Assembly (NCBI GenBank): GCA_964631415.1
Contig: CAZVZC010000029.1
Coordinates: 1 to 28,104 of the forward strand
Source: an uncultured archaeon
GTDB taxonomy: Archaea; Asgardarchaeota; Thorarchaeia; Thorarchaeales; Thorarchaeaceae
DNA length: 28,104 bases
Direction of reading: 5' to 3'
How positions within the stretch are numbered: position 1 is the stretch's first letter; each line of letters begins with the position of its first letter. Positions 1,903 to 24,853 of this stretch are shown here, piece after piece. The notes under the pieces were generated by a model. The model saw nothing but the letters and a program-made list of their open reading frames with translations, was not told the origin of the DNA and ran no database searches. The position numbers were made by a program, and so were the translations under genes.

Positions 1903-4626
1903 TTGTCAAGGTCCGGACTTCCAATGATGCTCATGTTGGTGCCTCTTCTCCTATTTCCAGTTGCGGTATGCGGGCTGGTCGTTGCTGGACCCATCTTACC
2001 GTCGCAAGCCCAGGCTTCTACGAACGTTGCCTTGGTTGGCGCCAGTAACGAACCGTCGGTGGCGACGTCATTACAACTGGATTCGCAATCGATTCACCTG
2101 ACCTTGTTCTCTTCGATTGCAGCAGCAGTCGCCGACCCGACAACTAAAGCACTAATAATTGCTGATGTTCCCATGGGTCCATCCGATGTCGGGGTGCTCA
2201 CAGCCTTCCTTACAGATGGTGGTGGCATCCTTGTTCTGGTTGGTCCTTCTGTTACTACTAATGGGACTGGGTTCCAGGAGCTCGGAATCACACAGAACAA
2301 CAATCTCGTTGCGAGCAGCGATCGAGCAGGGGTAGTCACGAGGATGATGACAACGGCCCATCCTGTGATGAACTTCGACTGGGCTTCTGCTCCGCCCACT
2401 GAGAAAATGACGATTCTTCCAGCACTCAATCCCTTGACTGTGAAGCTTCTCGCGAACGACACTGGCTTCGGGACTGGCGGTGCTCCACTGCTCGTCTACA
2501 CTACCTTGGGCTCGGGTAACATACTGGTTTACACACCTTGGCTCACCATCAACAGCACTGCAGAGGAGCATCAGGTGAATTATGAAACTGTTCTCTGGCC
2601 CTACTTCAATTACTTCCTGTACTTGACAAGTATGTACCTAGGCGGCGAAAGCCCATACACATATGCAGAGTGGGCGTACTCACCCGTTCCTCATTTTGAG
2701 CAGCAAATGATTATCATGGTGATAGTCGCTGTGGTTGGAGTTTCCACTGTCTATTCGTTCCGAAGGATGAGGCGGAAGTCGACCGAGCACCCTGAGGTGC
2801 TCACCGAAATGGAAAGGGCTGAGCTGCTTGTCAAGACGGGCGAAAAGATCAGTGACTGGGAAGAGATAGGAATGCACAGGCAGATAGGTGGATTCCTAAT
2901 ACAGCTCTTTGTCACTCTTCTCCTTGTGATCCCGCGAACTATCCTGGCTGTCATGATCTACCCTCGGTACATAATGCCGTTTCCGCAAGCAGCTGGGTGG
3001 TTCTCCTTCAGTGTGAACCTCTTCCTAGGTCTGTGGACACTGTTTGACCTCAGTACAGCCGTGGCTCTGGCAAGATACTTCGCTGAATACCGTGTGTCTC
3101 AGCCTGAAGAGGCCGTGAAGTATGCGCAGATCTTCGTATGGTGGCAGTGTCTGAGTGGCGTCGTCCAGATCACGTTTATTGCGTTCGTCGGTTCGATTGT
3201 ATTCCCTCACACCTATCTGGCTCACCTTACATACGTGTTTATCGCGCACTCTCTGTTTCAGTTCCCGGGTTTCACTCTGCTCTTTGTCTACGTCTTTCAG
3301 GGAATGAACAGAATCGACTATCATCAGATCTCAACTATCCTGAAGTACGTAGTCTTCGATATTGCAGGCCCTTACACTATCATACTGGTGTTCAGATGGT
3401 GGGGATCTCAGAATCCGATATTCGGCGAAGCACTTGCTGGCGCAATTGGGCAGGCAATCGGGTCGTACCTTTCGGAATACCTAACACTTATCGTTTCTAT
3501 GTATATGTTCAAGAGTCTTGGTTTCAAGGCCAGCACTCTGTTCAGGGTGGACTTCAAGTCTGAGCACATTAAGAGGGCTTTGAAGTTTGGTGCCAAGTGG
3601 ACTGTCGGTGCAGCAACGGTCCCGATTGTCTGGTTCTATCAAATGCTTCTAGTGAGCACCAATCTGCTGAACTGGTCTGCCCTGCAAGGTCAGTATCAAC
3701 TAGCATGGGACCTAGCAATAATGGTTAGCATAGTGGGTCTCTTCATGGAGAGCATGCTTGGAGGAATGTCAGAATCCTACTCCCATGGAAAGAAGAAGTT
3801 GACAGAGCTCTATGTCGCTCAAGGCCTCAAGTACGGTGCCTTCTTCGTGTTTTGGCTAGTATCATCACTGGCAGCTGTTGGTGGTAGGGCAATCTTGGGG
3901 GCCGCTGGACAGGAATGGGCTTATGCGGCTGTCCTGCTTCAGTTCTTCTTGATATTTCAGGTGCTGGGATTCTGGAGTTGGCTTGGCGATTGGGTCTATG
4001 CAGCAGCGGAGAGAACCGGACTTGCAGCTGGTGTCTGGATCCTTGAGCAGGCAATTAGAGCGGTGGCAATGACTTACTTTGTGGTTGTGCAACCAACTCT
4101 GACAATCACCTGGCCCGTACACTTCTCAGTCTATCTTGGCGGAATGCCGGGGATAATCGTCGGCTATTGCATCGGCCTCTTCTGCAAGGATCTGGTTGCA
4201 TGGATAGTTATTCGCAGGGTGATAACCAAACCAAAGCTCTACGTCTGGCAAAGCTATGTGGGCCCTGCTTTGGCTGCGGTTGTGAACTACATCGCGCTTG
4301 AGATGCTCGCCCAATACATATGGGACGGTGACATAATCACTTCTGCCCTGCTCTTCTTTGTCGGCACAATCCCGTCACTCTACCTGTTCGCATTTGTGAG
4401 CGGCCTCACCGGAACTTGGGACGCACATACGCTTGCTGAATTCAAGAGGGCATCCCAAATGGTTCATATTCGAGGACTAGGCTGGTTGGCTAGAAGATTC
4501 TACGGCTCCATAGCTCTTGGTGCACATGTTTCGCCATTGCACAACAGGTTCCCGATAGACATCTACGATGAAGCGATGGTCGAGGCTGAGGAGCTTACAA
4601 GAGAGAAGAAGAAGCTCGTGATCTAG
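1903..4626 (+). CDS. Large membrane protein: signal peptide, extracellular GATase/ThuA-like domain and MOP-superfamily (flippase-like) multi-TM domain
   Basis: 907 aa with a hydrophobic N-terminus, LTAFLTDGGGILVLVG, then more than 12 hydrophobic segments including FDLSTAVALARYFAEY. GGAGG lies upstream of the TTG; the exact start is uncertain. Confidence 0.72.
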   Translation: MSRSGLPMMLMLVPLLLFPVAVCGLVVAGPILPSQAQASTNVALVGASNEPSVATSLQLDSQSIHLTLFSSIAAAVADPTTKALIIADVPMGPSDVGVLTAFLTDGGGILVLVGPSVTTNGTGFQELGITQNNNLVASSDRAGVVTRMMTTAHPVMNFDWASAPPTEKMTILPALNPLTVKLLANDTGFGTGGAPLLVYTTLGSGNILVYTPWLTINSTAEEHQVNYETVLWPYFNYFLYLTSMYLGGESPYTYAEWAYSPVPHFEQQMIIMVIVAVVGVSTVYSFRRMRRKSTEHPEVLTEMERAELLVKTGEKISDWEEIGMHRQIGGFLIQLFVTLLLVIPRTILAVMIYPRYIMPFPQAAGWFSFSVNLFLGLWTLFDLSTAVALARYFAEYRVSQPEEAVKYAQIFVWWQCLSGVVQITFIAFVGSIVFPHTYLAHLTYVFIAHSLFQFPGFTLLFVYVFQGMNRIDYHQISTILKYVVFDIAGPYTIILVFRWWGSQNPIFGEALAGAIGQAIGSYLSEYLTLIVSMYMFKSLGFKASTLFRVDFKSEHIKRALKFGAKWTVGAATVPIVWFYQMLLVSTNLLNWSALQGQYQLAWDLAIMVSIVGLFMESMLGGMSESYSHGKKKLTELYVAQGLKYGAFFVFWLVSSLAAVGGRAILGAAGQEWAYAAVLLQFFLIFQVLGFWSWLGDWVYAAAERTGLAAGVWILEQAIRAVAMTYFVVVQPTLTITWPVHFSVYLGGMPGIIVGYCIGLFCKDLVAWIVIRRVITKPKLYVWQSYVGPALAAVVNYIALEMLAQYIWDGDIITSALLFFVGTIPSLYLFAFVSGLTGTWDAHTLAEFKRASQMVHIRGLGWLARRFYGSIALGAHVSPLHNRFPIDIYDEAMVEAEELTREKKKLVI

Positions 4627-8253: not shown

Positions 8254-8502
8254 ATCTTTTCTCAGGTTGGCTGGTAGACTGGCTGAAACGGCAAGATGGC
8301 ATCAGTGATTATAGCCTTAGACGCCTGATTGGGAGGTCAAACCAAGACCTTGATGATGAGCTAACAAGTGTATGGGCCTGATTCGAGCCCATAGTGGTTG
8401 TCATAGAAACGCTCTTTATTGTTGACGCACGTCTGTCGAAGCATACATGGGCACGACTTGCGTGGTTGCAGTCATGCCCGATTCCGCGGAGACTCAAGTA
8501 GG

Positions 8503-11500
8503 ATGAAGCGCCAAGGCTATGCAGTGGTCGCTTTACTTGTCGTGTTTCTAGGTCAGTTTGCGGCCGTCAACTGTATACCTGGGTGGAACGCATTTGAAGG
8601 CGCTTTCGGTGACAGTGTAACACATACTTCTCCCGATCGAGGAAACGACCAAGATAAGGTCGCACCTGCTGAGCCTGCTCCGGATGACGAAGGCATCGAT
8701 TCCCCCATGCAGGGCTTCCTGACTGCTCAAGATATGGGAAGCGGCACTCTGAATCCGGTTTCAGTGGAGCAAAGAGGCTACACTACATCTGGAAACCTCT
8801 CAGCCCGAACCGACACAGGAACCAACACAAGTGCGAATCTGTTCATTGATCAGGAGCACGGTTGGAAGGGCAGTCTTGCCGAAGTGAACGTATCTGGTCT
8901 TCAGAGGCTCTATGTTGTGAATGGGTCGTTTTTGACGGGCACGCCCGGTTCGAACGCGAATCCAAACGGTACTGTCGCTTGCAAGCCTGACGGCTGGAAT
9001 GCAATGAGCAATTCGACTAACACGTTTCAGACCCAAGTGGCTACCTATGACCAGAGCGGTACCCGATTTGTTGCGGTTGAGAACAGAGGAAAGCAAGCCG
9101 GTATAAACTACTATCACTATGCCGGGACTCGTGTACTCTGGACTCAGAGCGTGGATAATGTTCCTCAGACAACCTAGTTTATCCTTAGGTTTTCCTACAT
9201 GTATCTCAGCGGTCCCCTTGGCTTAGCGCTCTCAAACAGTTGTCACTTGACCGTCTACCTCAATCAGGCAAGAGTATGGAATCAGAGTCTTCCGGCACTT
9301 CCTCAAAGAGGGGTCTGGTACGATACTGGCTCAATACTTGTCAACAAGCCGGACTTAGGCACGACATTCGATTTCAGAATCGGCATAGTAATTGACGACG
9401 ACATGACCCTCAGTTCCAGTACCTATGGTGTCGTGAACGCCGCATACATCACAGTCAACGTTGATGATGTGTTCCTAACCGGGGCTGACTCGCCTACCTT
9501 TGGCAGAGTATCGCTGCAATTCAAGGCGGGCAATACCACTTTTCCCATCACTGGGGCCTCAGGATCTGGTTCGGTCAGCATCCCGAATCCTAGCTTCTGG
9601 ACATCAAACCCACTGACAGTGACAGTGCAATCAAACACAAGCGTATCCTTTTACTATGTAGCTCGCGTTCTTTCCCATCATTATGGTAACTCGACATGGA
9701 CGACTGAGATGGCCAAGACGGGGGTCTGGTATGATGCCCACCCTTGGTCAAGCTCTGATTTGCGGCTTTTCACGTACATTGGATCACTCGGCAGCTATGA
9801 GCAGTTCTCTCTTCGCATAACGACTCCTAGCGATTGGGCGAACGCGACTATTTACGATCCGTTATTCGCAGATGTGACTGGACAGTGCTCGATTGGGCCT
9901 GGGCTTGTCACTGTTCCTCAGAGCGTTCTTAGCCTCCTTGGATGGTGGCAGGTGACATTCCAAGCGCCCAACTACTTGAAGGCAATTGTGATTCAGAAGT
10001 ACGACTCACAGAGTAGCTCATGGTCGAATGAAAGTTCATTCAGGCCAGCGAATCTGACAAGAGCACTCGTCAACGTAAGGACGGCAGAATCAGTCCCAGC
10101 GGATCTGAACAATGTGAACGCCACATGGGTGCTTCCGAATGGGACTGTGTGGGCAAACGAGTCTTTCAGTGGAGGGGTATCAGGTTGGATTAGCAGCAGT
10201 TCACATGTCATTGACAGCTCGGCGGCGGGCATGTGGTCGGTAATAGTGTCTTGGAGCAATGGCTCTGAGGTCGCATACAGTAATGCTCACTTTGATGTCT
10301 ACCACCAAGTCACACTGTCACCGGTTTATACTGAGATTGAAACAGATGCTGGGCTTGTTGTAACGAGTCTGGTTAGGTTCATTGACTTCGATAACGGGCG
10401 ATACTTGATGGATGACTCGGTATCAGTCGCTGGCAACTGGTCTGGCGTCGACACCGTTTTCACACCCAACTTGGCGAAGAGCTGGTGGGAGGGCATCTTC
10501 GATACATCACTCGTCGAGCCCGGCACATATGTGGTAAGAGTCAATGCATCACGGCCATTCTATGATGCATCATACTGCTTGTTTGTCATCAGGTCGACAG
10601 CTGTAACACGGTTGGCTTCACCGAACTCGCCATGGACCAGCTGTGCCTGGAACTCGACAGTTCAGCTCACTTTCGCATACGAACTGCTTGACTTTGAATC
10701 ACATGTGTGGATACCTGTTACGAACTTAACGGGTAATGTATACGCTAATCTCAACTGGACTGCTGGACATTGGTCAGTGTCACAGAATGCAACCCTTGGA
10801 GTCTATGTGTTTATCGTAGATGCGGGGGCTCGACCATCAGGCAACTGGCTATTGAACTTCACATTCACCAGGCTGAGTCATCAACCACAACAGATGCTCA
10901 TCATGCTTCTAGTATCACCAGTCGTCACAACACTGACGTTGGATGGCCCTACATCCGGCCAAGTTGACATCAATGAGGAGCACTCACTGAAGGTCACATA
11001 TGCCGACAGTAACGGCGTTCCGATAGGGGCGGCAAATGTGACTGTTGATGACGTTTCGCCGGCCGAGGGACTTCAGGTCTCTTCGATCACAGAGGTCCCA
11101 TCTGAACATGGGAACTACACCCTGACACTGACACCGAAACACCTTGGCGTTTTCACAGTCAGACTTCTTGCTACAAAGAGTGAATCGCAACCTGCGACTT
11201 CCATCTTTGTACTACTGGTCAATGACATTGCCACTGCTCTCCACATTACGACAGGCGACAGTGCCGTGATTGGTTACACTGACGTCTACACGGCGGTGTT
11301 CCATTATGAGATGCTGAATGGTTCGGGTGTCGAAGACGCCTCGATAACCATCCTCTTCACTGGTCCTTCAGGAGGTCTCACATGGTCTACACCTTTGCAG
11401 ACAGGCATAGGGAACTACAGTGTGGAGTTCAGCCCAGTTGATTCAGGAACCTACCTCGTGACCATTGCGGCGTTTCTGCCGTACTATCAGAGCAGCTCTG

Positions 11501-13821
11501 CCATGTTCTTCCTCATTGTCAGTGACATATCTTCTGAGCTGATGCTTGTCAATGGCACTTCAGCCTCTGTTCTGTTTGGCAATAGCTACCGACTTGTCGT
11601 CCACTATACTAACTCTTCGGGCTTTGGCCTAGACGGTGCAGATGTGAGGGTAGAGTCTCTGAATCCTCTTGGTGCACTCGAGGTTTCTGCCACGGAACCT
11701 CTGGGGCAGGGCTTGTACTCAATTGTCCTCACCCCTACGCAAACAACGACTGCTAACGTTTTGATCAGTGCCAGCTTCCTGAACCATCAGACCGGTTTTG
11801 TCACGTTTACGCTCACAACAATGGCAATACCCGCCTTCCTCACAGTCATGAATTCGGCAGCTGTGACCTCAATCGACCGCAACTTCACTCTGTACATGAG
11901 GTTGCAGACTGAGAGTTTGGTGGGGCTGGCTGGAGCCGTCATCACTGTCCAAAACCCCCCAGTTGAAGTTGCTTTTGTGGGTCCTGTCGATTTGGGCAAT
12001 GGCCTTTATGCATTAACGATGGTCCCCGCTAGTGTTGGAGCGTATGATATACTCTTCAGAGCGAGCCTTCCAAACTATCAGAATGCATCGGCTGCATTCG
12101 CTCTGAACATCATCAAGGTTCCCACAACTCTTCATATTGCAGGTGGTCTTTCATATGCGGCAGTGCGGTTTGGAAACGCCTATGCACTCCGTGTAATGTA
12201 TGAGCGCACAGACATCATGCAGAACGTCACTGATGCGACAATCAGTGTGTATCTCTCACCAGAGGAGGGTCTCATGTGGACTGTCCAACAACTCGATGGC
12301 TACTATAGCATAGGGCTATTGTCCGGGTCCTTGGGTAGGTGGACAATCATAGTTTCTGCTGAGAGAGAGAACCACACCCTAGCATCGGTTCAGTTCGTAC
12401 TTGATATTATCACCATCAGTACCACACTGGGTGCTGCTGCACATCCAGAAACCGTCAACTACAGCAGGCCATTCCTATTCACACTTACATACCGCGTCCA
12501 AGATAATCAAAGCGGCGTTTCTGGAGCGAGCGTCCTTGCTACAGGCGATGGTTCAGAATGGCTTTCTATTCAGGACTTAGGAAATGGCAGTTACAGCGTG
12601 AATGTGACACCCGTCGGCCTTGGGGACTTCTCTCCTCTGCTGACTTTCGACAAGCCTGGCTACGAGTCAAAGCAGTACCGGCTCTCGTTCACCGTCGTGA
12701 AAACACCTCTGAAGGTTCTGCTCTTGAGTAACTCCTATGCCACTGAGGGTGTGCCCTTTGATGTCATAGTCAGAGTCTCGGAAGAAGACACTGGCAGACC
12801 TGTCAGTGACGCCGCGGTTTCATTCAGGATATCTTCAGACCTTGCAGGTGATTTCCTTTCCATGGATGAAACCGATGTACCTGGTGTATACAGCCGCCAA
12901 TACATGATGCCTCTGTGGGTGGACCTGACCAGCTTTACACTGGAGATCGCTGTCTCCAAGGATAACTACGGGCTTCGTGGCGGGTTCTCTGCCGCCTTCT
13001 TCAAGGAACAGAATTTCGCGGTGAGGATGACGCCTGTCATTACCAGCACGGGGTTTTTGGCTCTGGTGGTGCTAGTATCGGCAGTTGGTTTTAGAATCCT
13101 CAGGAAACTGCGAAGGCAGCGGAATATTGAGGCCCTGAGTGTCAAGAAACGCTTCGATGACGTCGCCAATATCATTGGTCTGATTGTATTGCACAAGACC
13201 AGCGGAGTTCCCCTGTACTCCAAGATTCTGAGAGGTGGTTTCGAGGAAGGCATGATCTCAGCTTTCGTTTCGGCCATCACTTCCTTCAGGTCCGAGTTCG
13301 GAATGGATGAGAGTCACTGGGAATACGAAGTAATCCCGATCTCAGATATAATCAGTGCGGTGGCGACCAGAAACCTGATTTGTGCCTTCATGACTGTTTC
13401 GGCGCCCTCAGCGTCTCAGCAAGTGAAGATGGAGGCGTATGCGAGATCCTGTGGTGCCATGTTTGATGACTTGTTTGGGGACGTTCGGGGACAGGTCCTC
13501 GACCAGGAAACCGTGAAGGCGCTCGACTCCCTGTTCTATGACCTTATGGATGGCAACCTCCTGACGCTCTATAAGCGGAGATGGGATACTGCATTACCAC
13601 GGCGGCTAAAGTGCCTTCTAGCCACTGCATCCTTCATTGAGAGACCGGATGGTTTCTTGCTCGGCGAACTAGCAAAAGGAATGACCTCCTGCGGAATTGA
13701 GGAGAGTTACGCATACAAGCTTATCCTCGAGGCCATAGAGGGTCAGGTCCTTGTGCAGGCGGAGAGATCAGATGAGGGGACCAGCATCCCTTTGGTGGAT
13801 AAGAGCACACAACCATCCTGA
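8503..13821 (+). CDS. Giant type I membrane/surface protein (signal peptide, about 9 Ig-like repeats, TM helix, longin/roadblock-like cytoplasmic domain), interrupted by an in-frame TAG at 9175-9177
   Basis: ORFs 8419..9177 and 9199..13821 share a frame and are joined by TAG plus FILRFSY. The signal peptide follows ATG 8503 (MKRQGYAVVALLVVFLG). About 100-aa beta-rich repeats carry G.G.Y motifs and many N-x-S/T sequons. A TM helix near 13036-13101 is followed by a basic stop-transfer patch. Confidence 0.8.
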
Positions 13822-19268: not shown

Positions 19269-19577
19269 CTAGTAGTGGTCGACCTCGATATCGTACTGAA
19301 TACAACCGTGACCTTTGATATGCTGTCCGCCATCAATCAGTCTCATGTTGAATGGGAACAGGCCAACTCGATCACCATCTCTTATGGCACTGGTTCGCCT
19401 AGCCAATGTGCCGTTGATGAAACAGTCCCCAAGTTCCTTCATTCCTAGACCCAGACGTTTCACGAACTGCTCGAAGTTTTCATCAGCCACGGCTTCACGA
19501 TTAAACATAGTGTCCTCATTGGCCCGACTGCCGGGCACTAGCTCCCTCAATCGCCCGTAGAGATGTACCTCTATCAT
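19269..19577 (-). CDS. ThiS/MoaD-family ubiquitin-like protein with a C-terminal extension after GG
   Basis: MIEVHLYGRLRE...FING...IRDGDRVGLFP beta-grasp pattern, then NMRLIDGG and 18 further residues. Confidence 0.85.
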   Translation of the reverse strand: MIEVHLYGRLRELVPGSRANEDTMFNREAVADENFEQFVKRLGLGMKELGDCFINGTLARRTSAIRDGDRVGLFPFNMRLIDGGQHIKGHGCIQYDIEVDHY

Positions 19578-19655
19578 TGGTCGGCTTGACTCGCCATGCA
19601 CAAATAAGACGTGTCATAGGTACGCGAGAGGCTTCTCACATGGGGAAATCCCTGA

Positions 19656-19674
19656 TGTAACGTTACAGTTATAT
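19656..19674 (+). promoter_or_regulatory. Perfect palindrome TGTAACGTTACA next to the putative metG TATA box TTATAT
   Basis: Palindrome at 19656-19667 and TTATAT at 19669-19674. Confidence 0.6.
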
Positions 19675-19694
19675 CTCCTGCGTGAGAAAAACCC

Positions 19695-19873
19695 GTTATC
19701 ATTCCAAGGCGGGATTAGAAGCTCACAGACCAGAAACATGGAACATGTGTTCCAGCGAATGGAACAAGGACACCTTGTCGCAGGTTGCCTTTTGCCGCGA
19801 TAGACCACTAATGACCAGCAGTGGTGACTAGGAACCTGCTCTCGCCCAGTCCCTGAAGGAGTGTGATGATAAC
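19695..19873 (+). ncRNA. Candidate structured cis-regulatory 5' leader RNA of metG
   Basis: Six mutually compatible stems of 6-10 bp found by eye. The outer stem closes on the nucleotide before the ATG (see findings). Confidence 0.5.
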
Positions 19874-21904
19874 ATGAGAAAGTACCCCTGCAAAGAGCCT
19901 GTGCTTGTGACATGTGGACTGCCGTACGCAAGTGGTCCGATGCATGTGGGCCATCTTCGCACCTACGTGCCGGCAGACGTCTTTGTCAGGTTCCTGAGAA
20001 AGCTCGGCGTCAATGTGACCTTCGTCTGTGGGTCAGACACTCACGGCACACCCGTCATGACAGCTGCCGAGAAGGTGGGACTAACTCCAAAGGAGCTGGC
20101 CACGAAGTACCATCAGCAGTATCTCGGTGTCTTCCCGAGACTCTCCATATTCTTTGACAACTTCGGGACCACAGATGACCCCGAGAACCATCATAGAACG
20201 ACTCAGATAGTCACAACTCTAATGAAGAACGGCTACGTGTACTCAAGAGACCTTCAGACTCCCTACTGTGACAGGGAGAAGAGATCGCTGCCGGACAGAT
20301 ATGTTCGAGGGGAGTGTCCATACTGCCACAAGGACGCCCGAGGTGACGAGTGCGATCAGGGATGTGGAAGATACTTGGAACCGGGTGAGATTCTCAATCC
20401 GCGTTGCGCTATCTGCGGTTCCCCGACGCGACCCATAACCCGAAAGCACTACTATTTCAGACTGACAGACTTCGCCGACTTTCTGCAGAAGTACGTGGAA
20501 GCGATGGACGGCACAAAGAACGCGAAGGGCTATGCTCTTGGCTGGCTGCGTGAGGGGCTGAAGGACTGGTGCATAACTCGTGACATTGATTGGGGTGTCA
20601 GGTTTCCGGGTGACCCGAGCCTTGTTCTTTATGTCTGGGTGGATGCTCCCATCGGATACATTGCCAGCACAGAGCAGTGGGCGAAGAAGATAGGCAAGCC
20701 GGATGCATGGGAACGGTACTGGAAACCAGGCGACGGACGCATTGTGCACTTCATCGGGCAGGATATAGTGTATCATCACTGCATCTTCTGGCCTGCCATG
20801 CTGAAAGGCAGCGGCTATAATCTCCCTGATGCAGTCGTCGCATCAGGCATGGTAAAGGTTGATGGTAATAAGCTGAGCCGTAGCAGAGGTTACGTGATCT
20901 GGTTGCTTGACGACTACCTCGACCAGAATCTTGACCCGGACTACATGCGCTACTACGTGGTTTCCTACACGAGTCAGACCAAGGATCTTGACTTCACATG
21001 GGACTCATTCAACGACAAGGTCAACAATGAGCTCGTGAACACGCTTGGCAACTTCTTCTACCGTGCTATGTATTTCTCGAACCAACACTTCGGTGGTGTT
21101 CCACAGGGGAATCTCCCTGACGACGTTCGACAGAAGATACAGAAGACAATGGATGCAGTGGTTGAGGGTCTGAACGAGTATGAGCTCAAGAAGGTCGTCG
21201 ACGAGATCATGGCGTTGGCGTCCTACGGCAATGAGTACTTCCAGAGCAACAAGCCTTGGGAACTGGTGAAGAGGGACAAGGCAAAGTGCCAAGAGGTCCT
21301 CTACAATTCACTTGCGCTGACAAAGGCCCTTGCGGTTCTCATCGAACCAATCATGCCATCAGTTGCTGAGAAGGTCTGGCGCCAGCTAGGCATTGATTCA
21401 GATGTCCACAAGGTCCTGCTAAGCGAGGCTTTGAGCCCGCCCAAGCAAGGATCCAAGCTTGGTGAAGTGAGCCCTATCATTACAAAGATTGATGAGAAAC
21501 TGCTTGCTAGATTGAAGGACCTGGTAGCGAAACGTATACAGGCAGCACTAGCTGCTGATCATGTGGAGCCTGAGAAGATGATATCTATCGAAGAGTTTCA
21601 TAAGATGGACATACGGGCAGGCAAGATAGTGGAATGCACTGCCATTCCCAAGATGAAGAAGCTTCTGTTGCTCAAGGTCGATATTGGCAAGGAGGTCCGC
21701 ACGATAGTGACGGGCTTGGCTGACCAGTACAAGCCCGAGCAGCTGACAGGTCTGACGGCCCTCTTTCTGGCCAATCTGGAATCAAAGAAGATTGGTGGGT
21801 TCGAGAGTCATGGCATGATTCTTGCTGTCGAGAAGGCCGATGAGCCCGGCAAGTGGATCCCGGTGACCGTGACGGGCGTGCCGCCCGGCAGCAAGGTTGC
21901 CTGA
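19874..21904 (+). CDS. metG: Methionyl-tRNA synthetase with C-terminal tRNA-binding domain
   Basis: LPYASGPMHVGH (HIGH), CGSDTHG, Zn knuckles, YVWVDAPIGY, KLSRS and a C-terminal OB fold (ESHGMIL). Confidence 0.98.
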   Translation: MRKYPCKEPVLVTCGLPYASGPMHVGHLRTYVPADVFVRFLRKLGVNVTFVCGSDTHGTPVMTAAEKVGLTPKELATKYHQQYLGVFPRLSIFFDNFGTTDDPENHHRTTQIVTTLMKNGYVYSRDLQTPYCDREKRSLPDRYVRGECPYCHKDARGDECDQGCGRYLEPGEILNPRCAICGSPTRPITRKHYYFRLTDFADFLQKYVEAMDGTKNAKGYALGWLREGLKDWCITRDIDWGVRFPGDPSLVLYVWVDAPIGYIASTEQWAKKIGKPDAWERYWKPGDGRIVHFIGQDIVYHHCIFWPAMLKGSGYNLPDAVVASGMVKVDGNKLSRSRGYVIWLLDDYLDQNLDPDYMRYYVVSYTSQTKDLDFTWDSFNDKVNNELVNTLGNFFYRAMYFSNQHFGGVPQGNLPDDVRQKIQKTMDAVVEGLNEYELKKVVDEIMALASYGNEYFQSNKPWELVKRDKAKCQEVLYNSLALTKALAVLIEPIMPSVAEKVWRQLGIDSDVHKVLLSEALSPPKQGSKLGEVSPIITKIDEKLLARLKDLVAKRIQAALAADHVEPEKMISIEEFHKMDIRAGKIVECTAIPKMKKLLLLKVDIGKEVRTIVTGLADQYKPEQLTGLTALFLANLESKKIGGFESHGMILAVEKADEPGKWIPVTVTGVPPGSKVA

Positions 21905-23583: not shown

Positions 23584-23748
23584 ATGCGCACAAGTGCCGG
23601 TGTAAACCGCATCAGGAATGGTGGGATCTACCATGTGCAGCATTATCGCCACGTCATTGTAGAGGGCGAGGTGTCTACGGTGCCCTTGGGTTGGAAGCGA
23701 TTCACATTTGACGTGTCTTATGACCGACCAAGGTACAAGAACTCTTGA
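23584..23748 (+). CDS. Putative 54-aa small protein
   Basis: Strong SD GAGGTG (23573-23578) 5 nt before ATG 23584. Translation: MRTSAGVNRIRNGGIYHVQHYRHVIVEGEVSTVPLGWKRFTFDVSYDRPRYKNS. Confidence 0.45.
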   Translation: MRTSAGVNRIRNGGIYHVQHYRHVIVEGEVSTVPLGWKRFTFDVSYDRPRYKNS

Positions 23749-23806
23749 TTCACTATGTTGGCATCGGTTCAATGAGCTAAAACCGGCTAGGAGGCATCAT
23801 GGACGG

Positions 23807-24853
23807 ATGTCCACCACAAATCACTCGCGGACAGAAGGACCGGCGCTGCCATGTCTTAGCTGCAAACAGTACACGTACTACGGGTGCGGCAGGGGCGGAT
23901 TCTGCAAGAAACTCACTCGATGGTCATCATCGACGGCTCTGTGCGATGGCTTCGCGCCGCCATTACTAGTTCAGGATCAAGCTGACCATCTGGCCGACAC
24001 GGGACTGATTTGGGAATCTGGAAGCGTCAGCAATCTCGCCACTGAAGTGTTTCGAAACGCTGGGTTTTCAGTGGCACAGGCGTCTTCCGGCTTCTCGAAC
24101 GACGCAACATATCTGCCGCACATTGTGCTGACCCGGTCCAGTTATCCAGGATTCGAGGCCCACCTGTTTACTATCGCTGACGCCTCATTCTGGATCCCTG
24201 AGTTCACTCCCGACAATGAAGTGGTCCTCTACTACCCCTGGGGTTCAGATGACGAGAGACGTTCAGCTTGGGAGCGACTATTCGGATCAGCGGTTGTGAT
24301 ATGCCGCCAACTAGCTCACAGTCCTGAAAGAACAGCGAGAGGCTTACAGAGTGTTCCCGTGCGATGGGCGCATGCCGAAAAGGGGTGGGAAGAACTCCTC
24401 AGGCAAGCTGATGAGCGGCCATTGACCCCACAGAAGGATGACTGGGAGAAGTCGATTGCGGCCCACATCACCACACTACGTGACTCTGGGTTTGTGCCAA
24501 AGTACGTCTATTCAGGCCTGACAAAGGATCATCCGGCCGTGAAGGTTCTGGACTTCCCAACAGTACTGTTTGATGATGAGAACTACATCGGAGTGGACGC
24601 GCATCTGTTCACTCTTGCCGACATGGCTCAGTGGGTACCATCCTTTGGTGAGCATGGTATGGACGTGATAATGGAGTTGCCGACTCTCGATCAGGAAGAG
24701 GCCCGAATTGGGTGGAAGAGGCTTGCTTCCGCGGCGTCTACGCTCAAACGTCTGCTCCGCGGCTATCGGACAATCATGATGGATGATTTCATTGGAGACT
24801 ACAAGTACTGGCGGATTCAGCGTGTTGGTTTCAATGTGCTCCTCGAGAAGTGA
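23807..24853 (+). CDS. Hypothetical protein with an N-terminal Cys cluster and two internal repeats
   Basis: CLSC...C...C...C at the N-terminus, and AHLFTIAD / AHLFTLAD 147 codons apart. The start is uncertain. Confidence 0.7.
   Translation: MSTTNHSRTEGPALPCLSCKQYTYYGCGRGGFCKKLTRWSSSTALCDGFAPPLLVQDQADHLADTGLIWESGSVSNLATEVFRNAGFSVAQASSGFSNDATYLPHIVLTRSSYPGFEAHLFTIADASFWIPEFTPDNEVVLYYPWGSDDERRSAWERLFGSAVVICRQLAHSPERTARGLQSVPVRWAHAEKGWEELLRQADERPLTPQKDDWEKSIAAHITTLRDSGFVPKYVYSGLTKDHPAVKVLDFPTVLFDDENYIGVDAHLFTLADMAQWVPSFGEHGMDVIMELPTLDQEEARIGWKRLASAASTLKRLLRGYRTIMMDDFIGDYKYWRIQRVGFNVLLEK

Follow-up and report, generated by a model that had tools for sequence, protein, structure and literature searches.

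In the T-box, SAM riboswitch and Escherichia coli thrS operator systems, a long structured leader precedes a synthetase or methionine gene, and in the leader-peptide attenuator of E. coli pheM-pheST a ribosome on the leader ORF reports the charging of the cognate tRNA. To our knowledge, few cis-regulators have been described in archaea, where the matching of synthetase levels to amino-acid supply is largely open. A new reading frame is exploited by prfB (RF2), in which an SD-like sequence lies 5' of a CUU-type +1 shift site and a low level of a translation component opens the productive frame, and by the ermC leader (ermCL), in which ribosomes frameshifted under telithromycin read on into the spacer and allow ermC initiation (PMC5009743). 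A hungry codon promotes the +1 shift as well (PMC5009743). Initiation itself may also be altered: elongator tRNAs are reported to initiate in E. coli when the initiator tRNA is depleted (Samhita et al. 2013, as cited in PMC7949028). In archaea, termination-reinitiation works (PMC6728339), and protection from FttA termination has been published as a hypothesis only (PMC11616081).

The window, i.e. the whole 28,104-nt stretch of DNA that was analysed, is contig C29 of a 2.16-Mb thorarchaeote genome (Table 1). The identification of the downstream gene as metG, made by the initial annotation, was borne out by its NF001100 match. Altogether, 66 metG loci of the family were gathered; three of them lay at contig ends without upstream DNA, and 63 leaders were compared. 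The genus comparison comprised the source genome and two genus-level relatives with an intact metG. Among the 63 orthologues metG starts at CTG in 38, ATG in 15, TTG in 5 and GTG in 3, with two unclear. The CTG starts occupy the same position as the ATG of other orthologues, and two orthologues (L013, L016) have none of these four codons there. A four-codon GTG mini-ORF (19863-19877) lies in the metG SD and overlaps the metG start (ATGA) in the genus, its frame not being conserved family-wide.

Table 1. Features of the metG leader and its surroundings (positions in the window)
Feature	Position	Strand	Basis or distribution
Promoter block CGTTA[CG]AGTTATAT (BRE-like element + TATA)	19661..19674	+	conserved family-wide
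Probable transcription start (A, 29 nt past first T of TTATAT)	19698	+	archaeal TATA spacing
5' strand AUCAUUCC	19698..19705	+	partner: strand just upstream of metG SD in most genera; SD itself in genus
SD-like motif AAGGCGGGA, near-invariant; proposed ribosome entry site	19706..19714	+	63 leaders
AUG-less leader frame, 29 codons to TAA	19722..19811	+	family range 26-74 codons
YUC codon (CTC-A), the first to be conserved in the AUG-less frame	19722..19725	+	CTCA 38, TTCA 23 of 63
Palindrome copy TGGAACATGTGTTCCA (consensus TGGAACACGTGTTCCA)	19739..19754	.	dispersed DNA palindrome
Possible relay mini-ORF, TAATG overlap, MTSSGD*	19811..19831	+	source genome only; could be chance
TCTCGCC, partner of GGCGGGA; closes entry site	19840..19846	+	fold and genus conservation
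metG SD GGAGTGTGA	19858..19866	+	its TGA is the leader-frame stop in 19/63 orthologues
metG, methionyl-tRNA synthetase, 676 aa	19874..21904	+	NF001100, 780.8 bits vs cut-off 587

Upstream of metG and divergent from it lies a small ThiS/ubiquitin-like gene (19269-19601, minus strand), which adjoins metG in 3/30 loci only, this neighbourhood being confined to the genus. A minus-strand RNA serving this gene was considered and rejected on that distribution and on a folding z of -1.22 on the minus strand. Elsewhere in the window, the ORFs at 1903-4626 (907 aa), 8419-9177 (252 aa) and 23708-24853 (381 aa) have no Pfam match, and 9199-13821 encodes a 1540-aa protein with weak Ig-like repeats.

The layout of the leader is shared by the family. 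The promoter block and AAGGCGGGA or a close variant are present in 63/63 leaders, YUCA follows 6-8 nt later in 61/63, and GGAG(T/C)GTGA or a close variant lies 135-230 nt beyond YUCA in the 63 family leaders. The promoter block, which occurs in a single copy in the source genome, precedes GGCGGGA by 40-46 nt across the family. Transcription probably starts at 19698, as judged from archaeal TATA spacing together with a conserved pyrimidine-A step 10 nt before GGCGGGA, and the first three bases of the outer stem drawn by the initial annotation would therefore be untranscribed. The entry motif reads AAGGCGGGA in 53 leaders, CAGGCGGGA in six and a single variant in four, and it is partially complementary to the 16S 3' end GGAUCACCUCCU. 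Pairing of the motif with 16S rRNA outside the 3' tail was rejected, only one-mismatch internal matches being found. Two Thorarchaeota 16S genes (L091 and L090) depart from the model just before the anti-SD tail, which suggests insertions or introns near the 16S 3' end; the L092 16S is ~2.4 kb long. Outside the family, the motif was absent before metG in 22 of 23 loci, the other having one unanchored AAAGGCGGGT, and no paralogous leader was found among the 15 AAGGCGGGA sites of the source genome.

It is very improbable that these motifs are DNA sites, e.g. a repressor site just past the transcription start, and that the folds are incidental. The motif does lie ~10-19 nt past the transcription start, and the leader does contain a true DNA palindrome; however, the motif itself is non-palindromic, single-copy in its context and variable in its distance from the TATA box (40-46 nt), and it fixes the reading frame. 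As for the palindrome, the TGGAACA/TGTTCCA pair that the initial annotation took for an RNA hairpin turned out to be a one-mismatch copy of a dispersed element, GAACACGTGTTC, found 5-10 times per Thorarchaeota genome versus 0-1 for the reversed control. In 10 orthologues it also occurs upstream of the metG promoter, outside the transcript. The second TGGAACA, on which a proposed swap between two RNA states depended, occurs in the source genome only (1/63 leaders). The palindrome copy is probably not part of the RNA mechanism; the element is a candidate DNA-binding site, with copies frequently close to metG, before or after its promoter. Further sites in the source genome (G000) are C1:180897, C5:39771, C17:16384, C36:11332 and C41:14932, and four of five copies in this genome lie outside or at the edge of long ORFs; sites in other genomes include G001:C32, G003:C16 and G008:C2. 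Clusters of three palindromes also occur, with spacings of ~240-280 and 320-330 bp.

The most distinctive property of the leader is an open frame that begins at YUC, 6-8 nt past the entry motif. A frame stop-free over 75% of the leader was found in 58/63 cases against 26 expected, these counts being taken from related genomes, which overstates their independence. In the CUC class, 38/39 leaders keep the CTC frame open across 70% or more of their length, against 7.6 expected; the counts for the other two frames are 6 and 9 of 39. In the CUUCA class the UUC frame is open in 20/24, the CUU frame in 19/24 and the third in 3/24, with ~5 expected. Since frames are compared inside the same leader, this result is immune to composition effects. 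Among 31 representatives (<70% identity) the frame is open in 16/17 (CUC) and 11/14 (CUUCA), and in nine new metagenome leaders, most 89-93% like known ones and one 51%, it is open in 6/6 and 3/3, respectively.

The YUC frame is stop-free for 26-74 codons in all 63 leaders (median 45). In 40/63 its stop is located between 5 nt upstream and 30 nt downstream of the SD start; in the other 23, including the source genome, it lies more than 5 nt upstream of the SD, too far for simple overlap coupling. Termination-reinitiation would call for a stop that overlaps the downstream start or lies within ~10 nt of it (PMC6728339). Four divergent leaders of one genus (197-230 nt) all end the frame on the TGA of the SD. 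ATG, GTG, TTG and CTG are missing from the entry site in all 63 leaders, and each of the three frames is closed by a stop no more than three codons before YUC, so ribosome entry should be local, at YUC or one codon away. Frameshift entry from a 5' leaderless ORF was rejected because there is no conserved start and all frames contain stops. In one genus, 17/19 leaders have a CUG or UUG in frame, 5 nt upstream of the motif, which offers an alternative start there.

Variation is even across the codon positions of the frame. This absence of codon-position bias indicates that translation matters and the peptide is irrelevant, and a protein-coding remnant was rejected on this ground. AUG is the most depleted codon of the metG frame (13 vs 40 expected, ratio 0.32; p=0.005 on representatives), which could also result from avoidance of internal starts. 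Taken as a pattern of stops and codons, these data make it very likely that the AUG-less frame is translated. The leader resembles pheM-pheST in that a ribosome on a leader ORF would report charging to a synthetase gene. It differs in having no cognate-codon run, AUG start or conserved terminator hairpin: the AUG-started leader ORF with cognate codons of a classical attenuator was not found in the 63 leaders, and no terminator or antiterminator hairpin is conserved across genera, bearing in mind that archaeal termination need not use hairpins. In a literature search covering few subscription papers, we found no published description of this AUG-less metG leader frame or of a methionine-free regulatory start.

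The source genome carries the weakest copy of the frame, which extends over 64% of the leader, its stop lying 49 nt short of the SD. The CTC frame, preceded by an in-frame TAG two codons upstream, reaches its stop at the TAA at 19809, its short length being due to a 1-nt deletion near 19786 relative to the genus. The overlapping six-codon mini-ORF ends at the TAG at 19829, where the frames of both genus relatives end. The early TAA and the mini-ORF may represent a relay, decay or an assembly error, and this copy would need either the TAATG relay or an output by unfolding or coupling.

The initial annotation proposed a two-state RNA switch in which the 5' end of the leader masks the SD. All the helices it listed are present in the sequence where it placed them, and its fold of 19690-19880 was reproduced (-61 kcal/mol, z -3.07 on the plus strand), i.e. 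this segment does fold better than shuffled controls. The fold is boundary-sensitive, however: when folding starts at 19698 and runs into the coding region (to 19900), the outer stem is gone and z is -0.94. Within the genus TCC/GGA is paired in 100% and GGCGGGA/TCYCGCC in 95% of cells; for the outer stem (67%) and the ACAAGG hairpin (50%) the register is not preserved. Across the family, a CCGCC-like partner of the motif is found downstream of it in 46/63. Masking of the SD may hold in the genus, in which the 5' end pairs with the SD and TCC/GGA is kept in 3/3 members, but it is not supported family-wide, the metG RBS being predicted to be more open than in shuffled leaders in 59/63. The start codon class is not linked to RBS burial, the opening cost being 4.5-6.0 kcal/mol in all classes. 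Covariation was likewise not seen between the 5' end and the SD across genera (p=0.49), whereas the 5' strand does match the strand just upstream of the SD: it pairs at -6.7 kcal/mol with its own pre-SD strand versus -3.7 with those of other genera (p=3e-4). By direct count in an 18-sequence alignment, this helix is 72% paired, with modest covariation.

These data bear on the possibility that the RBS is toggled by a structured RNA whose ligand is MetRS (bound by a thrS-like tRNA mimic), SAM/Met or uncharged tRNA. We consider this unlikely, despite the likeness of GGCGGGA/UCCCGCC and CUCA to portions of tRNA-Met, the choice between two partners that GGCGG has in several genera, the covarying terminal helix and the 48/63 leaders that are slightly more stable than shuffles. 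Consensus folding across genera gave no common internal fold, and Rfam, which had been suggested as a check, returned no match for the leader at the gathering score or at E up to 10 (chance-level only), nor for 11 orthologous metG loci at E up to 1. Although a long structured leader before a methionine or synthetase gene is also a feature of the T-box, SAM riboswitches and the thrS operator, their defining motifs were not found here and the internal fold is not conserved. There is no covariance-model match to the T-box (RF00230 and relatives), no conserved AUG specifier or UGG in the 63 leaders and no UGGN antiterminator bulge in the alignments; SAM riboswitch families gave no covariance-model match and no conserved ligand-pocket fold in the metG leaders; and a conserved thrS-type anticodon-like CAU loop is absent, CUCAU following the motif in only ~4/63, in an A-rich context without a conserved hairpin. 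An aptamer would also leave the frame-specific absence of stops unaccounted for. What survives of the proposed archaeal riboregulator is thus a conserved cis-regulatory metG leader, and not a ligand-binding two-state RNA working through the TGGAACA swap. The leader is a conserved cis-regulatory element that very probably acts on translation and probably responds to methionine supply.

Other synthetase genes offer a second line of comparison. In the source genome proS, hisS, leuS and ileS are each preceded by a short uORF with a cognate codon and by a +1 frame that ends on the gene start. From the cognate codon, the +1 frame is open in 24/24 ileS, 29/29 leuS and 30/30 proS leaders (83/83) and the zero frame in none, and the ileS +1 frame stops no more than 2 nt from the start codon in 23/24. 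The uORFs MDCQI (ileS), MDCVL (leuS) and MLGExVP (proS) are conserved. The cognate codon follows 7 nt after an SD-like AGGATGGA or AGGTGA, whose place, relative to the key codon, is taken in metG by AGGCGGGA, 6-8 nt before YUC. The cognate amino acid is avoided in the long frame, at 0.35 of expectation for Ile in ileS and 0.21 for Leu in leuS, on a level with rare Trp; proS is the exception, with Pro at 0.91. Compared with shuffles, the entry site is harder to open in 53/63 metG, 21/24 ileS, 24/29 leuS and 17/30 proS leaders, which is not so for the main RBS in any of the four. Before thrS of the source genome (C13 near 31528, minus strand), a ten-codon uORF, MTDGNKRSPE, has Thr as its second codon, and its stop overlaps the thrS start (ATGA); this layout is unlike that of the sister leaders.

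There is a strong case, built on these sequence patterns, that the ileS, leuS and proS leaders form a hungry-codon frameshift-and-couple system, into which hisS fits in the source genome. A hungry cognate codon would cause a +1 shift, and the ribosome would then reach the gene start and reinitiate. These leaders match prfB closely, except that in prfB the new frame is the protein itself, while in these leaders it is disposable and ends where the gene starts. We found no published description of hungry-codon +1 frameshifting as a general amino-acid sensor, few subscription papers having been covered. The metG leader shares two properties of the system, i.e. a frame open from the SD motif to the gene start and avoidance of the cognate codon. 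The short AUG-started zero frame with a cognate codon and +1 shift site is absent from the 63 metG leaders, which makes metG, compared with prfB, a version without the upstream zero frame. As the long frame is present in metG without an AUG uORF, sensing would take place at initiation, and metG is best read as the methionine member of the sister ribosome-based system.

We therefore propose, with a probability of about 0.55, that the metG leader is a methionine sensor read by the ribosome at initiation, and not an aptamer. The small subunit would bind the SD-like AAGGCGGGA near the 5' end, where YUC, and not a start codon, is presented. When Met-tRNAi is plentiful, loaded subunits would find no match and leave, the entry site would fold shut and metG output would stay low. 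When it is scarce, translation would begin at or beside YUC without methionine, and the ribosome would cross the AUG-poor frame to the metG RBS, raising metG output through termination-reinitiation, through unfolding of the leader or through sustained coupling of translation and transcription (protection from FttA termination). The simplest starter would be elongator tRNA-Leu(GAG), whose codons are CUC and CUU, with wobble on UUC. This tRNA could also slip from CUU to UUC as in prfB, and the restriction of two open frames to the CUUCA class would then be accounted for, as it would be if Met-tRNAi mispaired on any N-U-N codon. A start at YUC by an elongator tRNA has, in our judgement, odds a little short of even. 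In archaea, aIF2 and aIF1 select the initiator tRNA, and we know of no archaeal elongator-tRNA initiation nor of any natural regulatory use of such initiation. The E. coli case is alike in that an elongator tRNA is reported to start when the initiator is short, and differs in being a laboratory loss of fidelity in bacteria (PMC7949028). The ermCL parallel lies in the output: translating a new frame through the leader, and not the peptide, switches on the downstream gene (PMC5009743). There, however, a drug is the trigger and the frameshift occurs from an AUG uORF, while the metG leader has no AUG and its proposed trigger is the lack of Met-tRNAi.

On the thermodynamic side, one point counts against the proposed sensor: the metG RBS is not predicted to be buried, which leaves the OFF state without an explanation, and ileS, leuS and proS are alike in this. 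The same openness of the ground-state RBS (59/63) would suit a frame of opposite sign, in which Met-tRNAi, when abundant, starts wrongly at YUC, metG is repressed by ribosomes that melt the 5'-3' helix or overrun the RBS, and starvation relieves the repression. Many frames indeed cross the SD, the 5' CAUUCY can pair with GGAGUG, an initiating footprint is predicted to lift the opening cost from 4.6 to 6.5 kcal/mol, and the right sign would be obtained with ordinary biochemistry. We nevertheless regard this as improbable. In E. coli, initiation at non-cognate codons amounts to 0.01-1% of that at AUG (bioRxiv 10.1101/063800), which is not frequent enough for a stronger start to be blocked; moreover, the entry site is sequestered, the thermodynamically similar sister leaders can only activate, and the AUG depletion fits translation during methionine shortage. 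The frame might also serve low constitutive coupled expression or sense start-codon stringency (aIF1/aIF2) or general stress, not methionine. The 38/63 CTG starts of metG are in keeping with this, and a non-cognate start would become available with any drop in initiation fidelity. This reading too appears unlikely, as every sister leader presents its cognate codon at a constant position, an amino-acid-specific pattern, and AUG is specifically depleted. On balance, the frame would seem quite likely to activate metG under methionine shortage. More tentatively still than the elongator start itself, the leader might be a natural conserved switch in which a methionine-free start at a Leu/Phe codon induces metG when Met-tRNAi is short, i.e. 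the initiation-level member of an Asgard frameshift-and-couple set.

The metG leader is a short, mutable element. If its start is methionine-free, initiator-independent initiation would here have a natural role in regulation, within the group of archaea that stands closest to eukaryotes. The sister leaders, for their part, argue that hungry-codon +1 frameshifting is a general sensor of amino acids.
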